Part shown: one piece after another, positions 3,272-7,591 of the stretch
How positions within the stretch are numbered: position 1 is the first letter of the stretch
How the letters are laid out: each line of letters begins with the position of its first letter
Position numbers and translations under genes: made by a program
The notes under the pieces: generated by a model
The model's input: only the letters and a program-made list of their open reading frames with translations
The model's database searches: none
Told to the model about the DNA's origin: nothing
NCBI GenBank assembly: GCA_031287735.1
Contig: JAITSO010000002.1
Location: 55,572-79,571, forward strand
Origin: Elusimicrobiota bacterium
Lineage (GTDB): Bacteria; Elusimicrobiota; Endomicrobiia; Endomicrobiales; Endomicrobiaceae
Direction of reading: 5' to 3'
DNA: 24,000 nucleotides

Positions 3272-4828
3272 ATGCCAACAGCACTCATCAGTGTATCTAG
3301 CAAAAGCGGCGTAGTTGAATTTGCAAAAAATTTAACTGATTTAGGTTGGGATATAATCTCAAGCGGCGGAACTGCGAAAACATTAAAAGAAAACGAAATC
3401 GACTGTAAAGAAATTTCTGAAATAACAGAATTTCCTGAAATTCTTGATGGACGTGTAAAAACTTTAAACCCTAAAATTCACGGTGCTATTTTAGCCGTAA
3501 GAGGAAACGATGTCCATACCCGCCAATTAAAAAAACATAAAATAAGCACCATAGACATAGTAGCCGTAAATCTCTATCCTTTTGAAGAAACTATAAATAA
3601 AATACCAAAACCTAACGACAAAAAAATAGCTCAAGAAATTATTGAAAATATAGATATCGGTGGTGTGGCACTGATTAGAGCGGCAGCAAAAAATTACAAA
3701 GATGTTTTGGTAATTTGCGATAATTCCGACTATAATTTGATAATAGATTGGTTAAAAAACAAGGATATAGATGAAGAAAAAAGATTAAATTTAGCTGCAA
3801 AGGCTTTTCGCCATACTGCCTACTACGATTCTTTGATTTCAAACTATTTGACTTATGAAAAATTTCCAAGCCAAGTTTCAATCCCTCTGAAAAAACTTTC
3901 CAATTTAAGATACGGGGAAAATCCGCATCAAGCCGCAAGTCTTTATGGAAATGGAACAGAGCAAAATTTTCCATCGGTAATTTCTGCCAAACAACTTCAC
4001 GGCAAAGAACTTTCATACAACAATTATTTAGATTTAGAAGCAGCTTGGCGGCTTGTTCATGAATTTGAAAATCCTGCTTGCGCAATTATAAAACATAATA
4101 ACCCTTGCGGCTGTGCAGAAGGAGAAGATTTAAAAGACGCTTATCTTAAAGCTTTATCTTGCGATACCGTCAGTGCTTTTGGTTCAATTATAGCTTTCAA
4201 TGATAGGGTAGAGAAAAATGAAGCTGAAGAAATAAGCAAACTTTTTGCAGAATGCATTATTGCTTGCGATTTTTCGCCAAAAGCCCTTGAGATTTTAACA
4301 CAGAAAAAGAACATTAGACTTCTAAAGCAAAACATCGTCTACAAATTGTCTAAAAACGAAATAGAATACAGAATGCTTACAAGCGGAATGTTAGTGCAAG
4401 ATAGAGATAATCTGCTTTTATCTGAAACCAAAAATATGACTAAACGAATTCCGTCAAAAAATGAAAAAGAATCTTTAGATTTTGCTTGGAAAGTTTGCAA
4501 GCATGTAAAGTCTAACGCCATAATACTAGTGCGCGGCAAACAAACAGTAGGAATAGGAGCAGGCCAAATGAGCAGAATAGATTCATTAAATATAGCTGTA
4601 AAAAAAATGTCAGAGGCAAAACATAATCTTGACGAAAAAAATTTTCCTCTTGTTTTGGCATCCGACGCATTTTTCCCATTTTCAGATGTGGTAGAGGAAG
4701 CTGCAAAAACCGACGTTAGTGCAATTTGCCAGCCCGGCGGGTCAATAAGAGATGGGGATTCCATTAAAGCAGCAGATGAAAAAAATATTGCTATGATATT
4801 TACAAGTATGAGGCATTTTAAGCACTAA
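3272..4828 (+). CDS. purH: Bifunctional AICAR formyltransferase / IMP cyclohydrolase
   Basis: This is track ORF 3254-4828, which opens with TTG. I prefer ATG at 3272, which has GGAGG 5 nt upstream. The product MPTALISVSSKSGVVEFAKNL...GGTAKTL...LDGRVKTLNPKIHGAIL...KHNNPCG...SDAFFPF...QPGGSIRD...MIFTSMRHFKH is collinear with PurH over its full length. Confidence 0.95.
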   Translation: MPTALISVSSKSGVVEFAKNLTDLGWDIISSGGTAKTLKENEIDCKEISEITEFPEILDGRVKTLNPKIHGAILAVRGNDVHTRQLKKHKISTIDIVAVNLYPFEETINKIPKPNDKKIAQEIIENIDIGGVALIRAAAKNYKDVLVICDNSDYNLIIDWLKNKDIDEEKRLNLAAKAFRHTAYYDSLISNYLTYEKFPSQVSIPLKKLSNLRYGENPHQAASLYGNGTEQNFPSVISAKQLHGKELSYNNYLDLEAAWRLVHEFENPACAIIKHNNPCGCAEGEDLKDAYLKALSCDTVSAFGSIIAFNDRVEKNEAEEISKLFAECIIACDFSPKALEILTQKKNIRLLKQNIVYKLSKNEIEYRMLTSGMLVQDRDNLLLSETKNMTKRIPSKNEKESLDFAWKVCKHVKSNAIILVRGKQTVGIGAGQMSRIDSLNIAVKKMSEAKHNLDEKNFPLVLASDAFFPFSDVVEEAAKTDVSAICQPGGSIRDGDSIKAADEKNIAMIFTSMRHFKH

Positions 4829-4853
4829 TGTATTATAATGAGTGCTATGAAAA

Positions 4854-4937
4854 GCTGAGATGGCGAAACGGCAGACGCGCAGGTCTCAGAAGCCTGTCCC
4901 CGAAAGGGCGGTGCGGGTTCAAATCCCGCTCTCAGCA
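4854..4937 (+). tRNA. tRNA-Leu, anticodon CAG, type II with a long variable arm; CCA not encoded
   Basis: Acceptor stem GCTGAGA/TCTCAGC with discriminator A. Anticodon stem CAGGT/GCCTG with loop CTCAGAA, giving U33 followed by CAG. The variable arm is CCCCGAAAGGGCGG-like. The T arm is GCGGG-TTCAAAT-CCCGC. Folded by hand. Confidence 0.9.
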
Positions 4938-4986
4938 TTTTTAGAGTAAAACTTTTTGACGCCGATGTTTTTTTAAGAATTATTAT

Positions 4987-5001
4987 TTTCCCAACGGGAA
5001 A
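4987..5001 (+). terminator. Small hairpin TTTCCC-AAC-GGGAAA followed by a T-rich tract; possible terminator of the purH/tRNA transcript
   Basis: 6-bp stem with a 3-nt loop, then TTATATTT. The stem is short, so the call is weak. Confidence 0.25.
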
Positions 5002-5187
5002 TTATATTTGTGCTAGCGAAAATAGGACGGTTTAAAGATAAGCTAAATGAATATCGCGGAAGCAAACTTAACTGCAAAATACTTTAAATTTACCGGAATG
5101 TATAAACTATGCAAATAAAACCGCTAAAGAAAGTCATGTTTTGGATTAAAGATTGGCTTGATTTTGGAGGGATAAAAAGGAGGTTTT

Positions 5188-6507
5188 GTGAACGTTAAGT
5201 GTTTTTGTGGAAGTGCAGAAGCTTTCAATGTACCGGTTCCGTCTCAGTGTAGTTCAGGCTGGGTTGGTGTGCAATGTGATATTTGTGGTTATTACAAGTT
5301 TGATAGCAGCTTATATGGAGAAAATTTAGAACAATGGTTTTCAAATGATATGTCACGTGAGTATTCAAAATGGGTGTATTCAGATGAAAAAGAGAATATA
5401 AAGAGAAGAGTAGCTTTATTAAAGCATGAAGTACGGAAACGTGCTTTAGCCTTCGCAGAAAATAATAGAAAACTTTTTAAAAAACATGGAGATGCTGCTA
5501 TAGGAATGGTTGTTGATAAAAATTGTTTCGTAGTAACAAAATCACTTATAGAAGAAATTAAAACCAAACCTTTTCCGACTCCAATGGAACAAATCGATTT
5601 GCTTATAATGTTTTTGGGTGACGAACTGAAAACCCCGGGGACAACCATAAGTTATAACGATAAAAAAATTGAAATATCCACTGCAAGTATTGACGACAAT
5701 AATAAAGTTTGGATTTTAGCGACATCAAAAGAAAAGGATTTAACAATGAACCGGCAACCCAATGTTGTTGAACTTACAATAAGTGGTTGGCAAAAATATG
5801 AAGAGTTAAAAAAAGTTAAAAACAATTCAAAAACTGCATTTATGGCAATGCAATTCAATAATGAAAAATTACAAACTTTTTATGAAAATCATATAAAAAA
5901 AGCAGTGCGCGAAGAAGGTTTTTTTATAGAAAAAGTAGATGAAAACTTTGAAAAAGATGATAATATAAATGTAGACATAATGCTAAAAATACGTAATAGC
6001 AGATTTATGATTTGCGATTTGTCTGATGGAAACTGTGGAGCTTACTGGGAAGCTGGATATGCCAAAGGACTTGGCAAGAAAGTGATTTATATTTACAACG
6101 AATCGCAATGGAAAAAATTAGAACAAGCAAGTGCAGAAGATAAAAAATTAGAACAAGCAAGTGCAGAAGATAAAAAATTAGAACAAGCAAGTGTAGAAGA
6201 TAAAAAATTAGAACAAGCAAGTGCAGAAAATAAAAAATTAGAACAAGCAAGTGTAGAAGATAAAAAATTAGAACAAGCAAGTGCAGAAGATAAAAAATTA
6301 GAACAAGCAAGTGCAGAAAATAAAAAATTAGAACAAGCAAGTGCAGAAGATAAAAAATTAGAACAAGCAAGTGCAGAAGATGAAAAAAACCAAATTCACA
6401 AGCCGCACTTCGATGTTGATAGATTTCGGTTTTTATTTTGGAATGAAAAGAACCCCGAACAGTTTGAAAAACAATTAAAAGACAAAATACAACTTTTGAC
6501 AACATAG
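5188..6507 (+). CDS. Hypothetical multidomain protein: Cys-rich zinc-ribbon-like N-terminus, winged-helix-like middle region, and a nucleoside 2-deoxyribosyltransferase-like (NDT/TIR/SLOG superfamily) C-terminal domain interrupted by a 9 x 10-aa repeat
   Basis: GTG start at 5188 with AGGAGG 5 nt upstream; 439 aa. Cysteines C5, C7, C21, C30 and C33 form a CxC...C...CxxC pattern. Residues 215-303 read TAFMAMQF...NVDIMLKIRNSRFMICDLSDGNCGAYWEAGYAKGLGKKVIYIY. Residues 407-418 read HFDVDRFRFLFW. Together these match the strand/Glu/GK pattern of NDT-family folds. Coding status is confident; the functional call rests on motifs only. Confidence 0.8.
   Translation: MNVKCFCGSAEAFNVPVPSQCSSGWVGVQCDICGYYKFDSSLYGENLEQWFSNDMSREYSKWVYSDEKENIKRRVALLKHEVRKRALAFAENNRKLFKKHGDAAIGMVVDKNCFVVTKSLIEEIKTKPFPTPMEQIDLLIMFLGDELKTPGTTISYNDKKIEISTASIDDNNKVWILATSKEKDLTMNRQPNVVELTISGWQKYEELKKVKNNSKTAFMAMQFNNEKLQTFYENHIKKAVREEGFFIEKVDENFEKDDNINVDIMLKIRNSRFMICDLSDGNCGAYWEAGYAKGLGKKVIYIYNESQWKKLEQASAEDKKLEQASAEDKKLEQASVEDKKLEQASAENKKLEQASVEDKKLEQASAEDKKLEQASAENKKLEQASAEDKKLEQASAEDEKNQIHKPHFDVDRFRFLFWNEKNPEQFEKQLKDKIQLLTT
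6112..6381 (+). repeat. Nine head-to-tail copies of a 30-bp unit AAAAAATTAGAACAAGCAAGTGCAGAAGAT, in frame, encoding (KKLEQASAED)x9
   Basis: Exact 30-nt periodicity is visible in the printed sequence from 6112 to 6381. Copies differ only at two positions: GCA/GTA in copies 3 and 5, and GAT/AAT in copies 4 and 7. A degenerate remnant GAAAAAAAC follows. Confidence 0.98.
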
Positions 6508-6533
6508 GTTGCTTCTGGTTATCACAAAGCAAC
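6508..6533. terminator. Hairpin GTTGCTT-(12 nt)-AAGCAAC in the convergent gap between the 5188-6507 gene and the TPR gene
   Basis: 7-bp perfect stem immediately after the TAG at 6505-6507. There is no strong T-run on either strand, so it is only a weak bidirectional terminator candidate. Confidence 0.25.
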
Positions 6534-6574
6534 TCAAGAAATTTCTAACCAAGTGCTGAAAGTGTTGCAGCGTT

Positions 6575-7591
6575 TTAATAAGGTATGAATTTCATTTTGT
6601 TTTCAAGCATCTCTTCTGCTGCTTCATTGCTTCCTAAAAAAGCAGCTTTTTGAATGTATTCTTTGTACAAACTTTCTTTGCCTATGTGTTTATAAGACAT
6701 TGCTAATATAAAGTTTGCCTTTTCACTCAAAGAGCTGACTTCAACTGCTTTTGCCGCCCAATCTTTTGATTGCACAAAATCTTTTTTGTCATAGTAGAAA
6801 GTTGCTATATTAAGATAAGCTGGGAGGTAAGTTTTATCTACTGCAATAGCTTTTTTGTAATTGGCTAATGCCTCTTCTTCGTTTTCTAATTTTAAATAGA
6901 CTTCTCCGATACTTAAATAATTTCCGGCGAAAGTTTCGCCGTTTTCCTGGGCTTTTTCATAATTATGTAAAGCACTTCTGTATCTTTCTTCTTCCATAAA
7001 AGTGTTGCCTATTAAATGATAGAATCCCGACATATTGAATTTTCCTGTAAAAATAGCTCTTCGGTATATATTTCTAGCATTTTCCAAATCCCCGGCTTTT
7101 CTAAAACACGAGCCGATGAGTAAATAATAATTTTCATCATTAGGGTTTAATTGGATAGCTTTTTGGAGGTGATTGACAGCTTCTAAAAATAAGCTTTTTT
7201 TGCCTGAAGTGTCGCCTTCCTCGTACAAAGATATGGCGATGTAATAGTAATTTTTATCGTCGCTATCATCCATTTCAGCTGCTAAAGAATAATATTTTTG
7301 AGCAGCAGAAAAATTTTCAACTTTCAGCAATGAGTGAGCGTAGTTTTTGACAATTCCAATATCCAAATCTTTCTCATCAAAGTTAACTAACCTGTCAAAA
7401 TATCTAATAGCGTCGTTGTAGTTGCCAAGATCATAGTTTTTGTAGGCTTTTTTAATAAATTTTTCATAAGTCATATTTGAATTATTAACGTGGTATGCTG
7501 CAGCTGCTAAAATAATGTATATGGCTGTAATCGCAATGCTGACTTTTAAATTCTTGCAAGAAAATTCAAAAATATCCTTATTTTTCTTCAT
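6575..7591 (-). CDS. Membrane-anchored tetratricopeptide-repeat (TPR) protein
   Basis: 338-aa ORF with an N-terminal hydrophobic segment VSIAITAIYIILAAAAY. Multiple 34-aa TPR-like units follow, for example YYLLIGSCFRKAGDLENARNIYRRAI and NYLSIGEVYLKLENEEEALANYKKAIAVD. Its ATG overlaps the upstream stop as ATGA at 7588-7591. Confidence 0.85.
   Translation of the reverse strand: MKKNKDIFEFSCKNLKVSIAITAIYIILAAAAYHVNNSNMTYEKFIKKAYKNYDLGNYNDAIRYFDRLVNFDEKDLDIGIVKNYAHSLLKVENFSAAQKYYSLAAEMDDSDDKNYYYIAISLYEEGDTSGKKSLFLEAVNHLQKAIQLNPNDENYYLLIGSCFRKAGDLENARNIYRRAIFTGKFNMSGFYHLIGNTFMEEERYRSALHNYEKAQENGETFAGNYLSIGEVYLKLENEEEALANYKKAIAVDKTYLPAYLNIATFYYDKKDFVQSKDWAAKAVEVSSLSEKANFILAMSYKHIGKESLYKEYIQKAAFLGSNEAAEEMLENKMKFIPY

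Follow-up and report, generated by a model that had tools for sequence, protein, structure and literature searches.

A nine-unit in-frame minisatellite, probably a recent and tolerated expansion, in the connector of an NDT/DNPH1-like domain of an uncultured Endomicrobiia lineage

One of the genes in the 24,000-nt window (the window being the whole stretch of DNA analysed here) encodes a 439-aa protein whose C-terminal NDT/DNPH1-like domain is lengthened, in the connector that follows strand β4, by nine tandem copies of a 30-bp unit. The explanation that we consider probable is that a unit native to this connector has been recently expanded by slippage or unequal recombination, and that the resulting insert is tolerated rather than designed. 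The array is of a known kind, a coding VNTR or in-frame minisatellite, found in an unusual place. The features on which the argument is built are as follows:

4854-4937, + strand: tRNA-Leu(CAG), upstream of the host gene (ARAGORN)
5188-6507, + strand: host gene, 439 aa, with an N-terminal Zn-ribbon, a helical/winged-helix-like middle region and a C-terminal NDT/DNPH1-like domain (ORF, homologues, AF2, Foldseek)
6049-6051, + strand: codon of Glu288, invariant in the family and aligned with the GYELG glutamate of Rcl/DNPH1 (invariant columns, HMM alignment to 2klh/4fyh)
6082-6102, + strand: predicted strand β4, KVIYIYN, residues 298-304, immediately 5′ of the insert (AF2 secondary structure)
6112-6381, + strand: tandem array of nine 30-bp units encoding (KKLEQASAED)9, residues 309-398 (TRF, per-unit table)
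6382-6388, + strand: GAAAAAA, a partial match to the unit start, i.e. A-tract microhomology at the 3′ border of the array (per-unit table, TRF end at 6388)
6406-6414, + strand: His407-Phe408-Asp409 (HFD), the first conserved element past the insert (alignments)

By far the strongest repeat called by TRF in the window was the array itself (6112-6388, period 30, 9.2 copies, 96% matches, 0 indels, score 517). A unit-by-unit table reproduced exactly the description given in the initial annotation, that is, 9 × 30 bp in frame with four variant bases: 266 of the 270 bases are identical across the nine units, and the consensus (AAAAAATTAGAACAAGCAAGTGCAGAAGAT) is found unchanged in units 1, 2, 6, 8 and 9. 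The variant bases are a C>T change in units 3 and 5 (GCA>GTA, Ala>Val) and a G>A change in units 4 and 7 (GAT>AAT, Asp>Asn), giving the order c c V N V c N c c along the array (c, consensus). The A6 tract that had been noted for the repeat opens every one of the units. A 'decayed tenth unit' had also been proposed immediately downstream, but the sequence at 6382-6411 mismatches the consensus at 20 of 30 positions, the common part being GAAAAAA alone, and is flank rather than a decayed copy. No second copy of the unit was found in the 1.36-Mb, 60-contig genome, in which the array is the only one of high identity with a unit of at least 6 bp and more than five copies. On the opposite strand, an ORF of 175 aa (6005-6532, − strand) reads the array as LLHLLVLIFY repeats; it was rejected as a gene, being a by-product of the repeat with no gene evidence.

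Bacterial coding VNTRs serve as markers in MLVA typing and are known from many surface and low-complexity proteins. The array resembles them in its head-to-tail, near-identical units, in a unit length divisible by three that keeps the frame, and in an expected polymorphism of length as opposed to on/off switching. Unlike them, it is found within a catalytic domain, that of a cytoplasmic enzyme-like protein, and not in a surface or linker region, and it is known from one assembly. The earlier proposal that changes in copy number would alter protein length without switching the gene off is consistent with the 30-bp unit, the open 439-aa frame and the conserved downstream motifs.

The genome also contains abundant palindromic elements (AATTCCCACTTT...AAAGTGGGAATT, with a variant AATTCCACCTTT...AAAGGTGGAATT), for which TRF reported tandem or nested arrays on many contigs, with periods of 36-55, 73, 192 and 355-428 bp. 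Such arrays, all outside the window, are located at:

contig C29, 6435-7289
contig C16, 13450-14467
contig C33, 13234-13709
contig C56, 8926-9280
contig C39, 13800-14622
contig C32, 7209-7370

A derivation of the 30-bp unit from these palindromic repeats was rejected, since no further copy of the unit exists in the genome and the palindromic motif is absent from the 24,000-nt window.

The host gene follows purH and tRNA-Leu(CAG), in that order (4828-5188), and begins with a GTG codon four bases 3′ of AGGAGG (5178-5183), a good Shine-Dalgarno sequence. The encoded protein keeps 13 of the 13 invariant residues of its family, on both sides of the insert. Within the HFD motif, all 98 homologues share the His and the Asp, and at least 90% the Phe. 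H407 and D409, as well as W418, are all conserved 3′ of the array. At the two ends of the protein, the first Zn-knuckle (window 5188-5300) reads CFC versus CPxC in the family, and the C-terminus (...IQLLTT) is without the conserved EAxxED tail of the family.

Homology searches returned 99 matches of about 310-380 aa, the best with 41% local and 47% global identity. A profile of 98 homologues recovered 4,101 representatives at E ≤ 1e-30 among 1.84 billion sequences; the best 150 of these 4,101 are all 296-375 aa long with a single matched stretch each, and neither a length above 375 aa nor a split match was seen among those 150. The layout common to the family consists of an N-terminal CPxC...CxxCG Zn-ribbon, a helical middle region ending in LTxxGWQKYEEL and a C-terminal domain with invariant AFMAM, GAYWEAG and HFD motifs. 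An NCBIfam match to DotG/IcmE (E 0.008, 14 bits versus a cut-off of 750) was discarded as noise due to the composition of the repeat.

Several lines of evidence bear on the fold of the host domain. The Pfam model PF05014 (Nuc_deoxyrib_tr) scored 20.2 bits on the host protein against a gathering cut-off of 28.8, and gave weak matches in 87 of the 98 homologues (best E 9.3e-7); because these scores are sub-threshold, membership of the family in PF05014 proper is not supported. AlphaFold models were obtained for the host protein, from the 98-sequence alignment, and for one of its two closest homologues, the repeat-free protein P0002, each with a pLDDT of 86. When the host model was searched with Foldseek, NDT, DNPH1 and BcmB structures came out on top (2a0k: E 2.3e-3, prob 1.0, about 96 columns), with TIR domains next, and the P0002 model matched DNPH1 and BcmB with TMt values of 0.6-0.70 over about 150 columns. 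With a domain-only profile, the segment GAYWEAGYA.GLGK.VIY (GAYWEAGYAKGLGKKV) aligned with Rcl GVGYELGRAVALGKPI, at a weak E of 0.2. In this alignment Glu288, which lies at the start of helix 3 in a G-x-x-x-E-x-G-x-A...GKP motif and is invariant in 98 sequences, is placed on the glutamate of the Rcl GYELG motif. This glutamate (E104 in the human protein) is the catalytic nucleophile. The catalytic triad of DNPH1 is formed by Y24, D80 and E104 (PMC10603095).

The Foldseek matches, together with the alignment of Glu288 on the GYELG glutamate, support membership of the host domain in the NDT/DNPH1 superfamily at the fold level; with the weak PF05014 matches, they also uphold the initial view that the array sits inside the predicted catalytic fold. 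Compared with DNPH1/Rcl and NDT enzymes (PF05014; PDB 2a0k, 8pqq, 9i9q, 4jen), the domain thus has the same predicted fold, an equivalent of the catalytic Glu, and an insert site corresponding to the post-β4 'helical extension' of DNPH1. It differs from them in its sub-gathering Pfam score and in the N-terminal Zn-ribbon, the helical domains and the invariant YWEAG and HFD motifs that are proper to its family, and none of the solved DNPH1/NDT enzymes has a long insert at the post-β4 position.

A defence-related role is probable for the host gene product, which we predict to be a nucleotide-cleaving enzyme. PADLOC gave one weak local match, to 'Effector TIR' (PDLC00733, E 5.8e-5), and 57 of the 98 homologues match as well (best 1.6e-8). 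The homologues are single genes in mixed contexts, i.e. among housekeeping neighbours, next to a toxin-antitoxin (TA) pair and AAA_21, or at a prophage end. In addition, the host gene is sporadic, being present in 4 of 41 related genomes, the window's own included, and this occurrence and the varied contexts fit, but do not prove, a mobile single-gene conflict module. The Retron-Eco1 (Ec86) effector is similar in that it associates a defence-type NDT-like domain with a winged helix, and its dimerisation is essential. In the host protein, however, the domain order is reversed, there is neither a nearby retron RT/ncRNA nor a PADLOC retron match, and the repeat insert has no counterpart in Ec86. 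Among individual loci, a Gp49/HI1420 toxin-antitoxin pair and an AAA_21 ATPase were observed in a homologue neighbourhood (L007, 7525-8186 and 9096-11570), and a homologue with an adjacent integrase was observed at a prophage end (L009, 8248-9435). These neighbourhoods hint that members of the family live in defence islands or as morons.

The connector that runs from the VIY tyrosine to the HFD histidine (Y301-H407) is 105 residues long in the host protein, versus 8-29 residues in 97 homologues, with a mode of 12 (51 sequences), in agreement with the statement of the initial annotation that a short loop is usual at this site. The longest connectors are those of the three nearest relatives (24, 25 and 29 residues), and a homologue encoded by a same-family genome has a connector of 14. 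With a single unit the host connector would amount to 25 residues, a length typical of the clade. Relative to the nearest relatives the connector has been lengthened about four-fold, and no other part of the domain varies as much in length within this clade; no insert like the nine-unit array was seen in approximately 250 inspected family members. The two nearest relatives, P0002 and P0003, have a CxxCG motif in the same connector (KKCVECGKEC and KKCEKCGK, respectively), which is possibly half of a zinc site at a dimer contact.

[quoted passage not shown] Likewise, NDT-like enzymes and the NDT-like effector of the Ec86 retron are active as dimers (bioRxiv 10.1101/2023.08.16.553469). Since the position of the insert matches that of the DNPH1 extension, and since NDT-like enzymes are dimeric, the inserted segment could, by analogy, matter for completion of the active site in trans. 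Given this trans-acting extension at the same site, the insert may not be functionally silent.

The AF2 model of the host protein shows a helix at residues 305-354, a turn at 355-368 with pLDDT below 50 and a second helix at 369-400, followed by HFD (407-409), β5 (416-418) and the last helix (423-438). The insert had been expected to be helical, and these long predicted helices are in keeping with that expectation, as is the helix-favouring composition of KKLEQASAED (K, E, A, L, Q). In the P0002 model a native short helix (271-279) starts directly past β4 and is followed by a loop and HFD, which suggests that the array prolongs the native post-β4 helix. The high confidence of the first insert helix (pLDDT about 93-95) could hint at a real structural element; long identical helices often receive over-confident predictions. 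The initial annotation had considered either a fully extended helix of about 13 nm or a hairpin of half that length. Topology rules out a straight rod, since the insert leaves and re-enters the fold at neighbouring points; the hairpin has its counterpart in the folded-back helix pair of the AlphaFold model. Compatible with the topology are an arm that folds back on itself over about 7 nm, as a helix-turn-helix, and a loop that is in part disordered.

The hydrophobic moment over the 90 residues is 0.058, 0.002 and 0.047 at 3.5, 3.6 and 3.67 residues per turn, respectively, and hydrophobic peaks occur at the 10/n harmonics alone (2.5, 10, 5 and 3.33). The insert contains 0 opposite-charge pairs at i→i+4, versus 84 in an equally long E4K4 reference, along with 17 at i→i+3 and 6 like-charge pairs at i→i+4; 48% of its residues are charged, with a net charge of −7. 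A canonical coiled coil was rejected, as there is no hydrophobic period of 3.5 or 3.67, and so was an ER/K single alpha-helix (SAH), given the charged fraction and the lack of i→i+4 Glu/Lys pairs. The insert is thus similar to ER/K SAHs and to antiparallel coiled-coil arms such as the Rad50 hook in being a Lys/Glu/Ala/Gln-rich, helix-prone segment whose long predicted helices fold back, but it differs from the former in charge pattern and from the latter in periodicity and in having no CxxC at the apex. No evidence supporting a role as spacer, oligomerisation arm or decoy, as had been proposed, was found in the periodicity or charge pairing of the insert.

No conspecific sequence was found in the databases. 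Exact scans of the metagenome and genome contig collections gave 0 matches, both for a degenerate version of the 30-bp unit and for a 35-bp stretch of the 5′ flank. The cluster of the host protein consists of a single 90-kb contig, deposited twice (JGI and NCBI), beyond which no contig record encoding the protein was found, and no true orthologue was identified, the closest homologue being only 47% identical globally (41% for the best local match). The nearest relative of the PurH protein is 79% identical, the named matches being from Endomicrobiia, and by this measure the species itself appears unique in the databases. In nine related genera this tRNA-Leu(CAG) is missing after purH and other genes lie further downstream; as gene order is not conserved, comparing the region for an empty site or synteny was uninformative. 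A match between the array and a 722-aa frame of a relative (genome G021, locus L005, contig C51; E 5e-4) was rejected as a homologue, since it corresponds to the K/E/Q-rich N-terminus of IF-2 and is compositional alone. This IF-2 N-terminus contains low-complexity repeats of the KLEQ(A/V)K type, and as far as sequence can tell, K/E/Q-rich, putatively helical repeats recur in this lineage.

The array is likely to be young. In old arrays under concerted evolution, the edge units usually diverge first. Here the near-identity of the units, the consensus sequence at both edges and the presence of each variant twice and in the interior only point to a young amplification with later internal duplications, and would fit a recent origin. 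Of the two possibilities raised initially, recent expansion is therefore retained, and long-term concerted evolution is less favoured. The two variants being both nonsynonymous could be taken as a sign of selection; this was rejected, as 18 of the 29 non-stop transitions possible in the unit are nonsynonymous, which gives p=0.39 under neutrality.

The sequence of events that would best account for the data starts from an ancestral state with a single KKLEQASAED unit, native to the connector past β4 of the NDT-like domain. This unit would have been duplicated, the first duplication probably being seeded by the A-tracts that border it (A6 at the start and GA7 after the array), and then amplified to nine by slipped-strand mispairing and/or unequal recombination. 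With a unit that is a multiple of three, the frame, the upstream Glu288 and the downstream HFD would be left intact, and the product would be the normal enzyme carrying 80 extra residues in a surface connector; these most likely protrude as an arm (helix-turn-helix, about 7 nm) or are partly disordered. Since length varies more in this connector than elsewhere in the domain across the clade, the insert is most likely tolerated, i.e. neutral or mildly deleterious, and not selected. Copy number would be expected to vary within the population.

Other explanations were weighed against this one. It is rather unlikely that the expansion cripples the enzyme, in which case the 80-residue surplus would inactivate or detoxify a costly effector whose gene is decaying in a small genome of 1.36 Mb. 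The insert does adjoin conserved catalytic elements, the first Zn-knuckle is degenerate, the EAxxED tail is missing and the gene is sporadic among the related genomes; however, the ORF is intact behind a good Shine-Dalgarno sequence, all invariant residues are retained, and the AF2 model of the domain around the insert is a confident one. That the helical arm is a functional module, tuning the oligomerisation or activation threshold of a nucleotide-cleaving immune effector, is unlikely. The hairpins of two protomers might pack, for example as a four-helix bundle, or the arm might set the reach of HFD into the active site of the partner, changes in copy number then acting as a rheostat. Such a role would agree with the location of the insert at the trans-acting extension of DNPH1, just 5′ of the invariant HFD, with the requirement of NDT-like defence effectors for dimerisation (Ec86 effector, bioRxiv 10.1101/2023.08.16.553469), with the CxxCG-bearing elaboration of the same connector in the closest relatives and with the long helices predicted by AF2. 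Against it, the insert has neither an amphipathic seam nor a salt-bridge network and is unique among the family members inspected, the near-identity of the units leaves too little time for shaping by selection, and the predicted turn falls, with pLDDT below 50, at an arbitrary point among identical units. In its strongest form, by analogy, the nine-unit arm would be a length-tunable regulator of a single-gene NDT-like immune effector, with slippage adjusting the activation threshold via dimerisation or trans-completion, a conjecture that we hold to be highly improbable.

A technical origin was also considered. The source genome is a 60-contig MAG, the array is carried by one assembly alone (the same contig in JGI and NCBI), and k-mers are repeated within 5901-6600 at k=31 (80) and k=55 (23), which would all be compatible with the array or its copy number being an artefact of short-read metagenome assembly. 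However, the four variant bases make every k-mer of at least 61 bases in this region unique, and perfect periodicity extends over at most 82 bp, less than the length of an ordinary read. Moreover, the order of the variant units is aperiodic, unlike that of a repeatedly traversed cycle, and the 90-kb contig is unbroken at the array, with the frame and the downstream conserved motifs intact. An artefact is therefore very unlikely and the assembly of the array plausible, nine being the assembled copy number.

If the expansion is merely tolerated, the array would be a natural example of extra sequence absorbed by the post-β4 connector of an NDT/DNPH1-like fold, which would be useful for engineering this fold. 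It could also be used, as a VNTR marker, to tell strains of an uncultured Endomicrobiia lineage apart, and it would gain a larger importance if copy number modulates the activity of the host protein. The more interesting object is the host family rather than the repeat: very large and uncharacterised, it looks like a single-gene, nucleotide-targeting conflict system.
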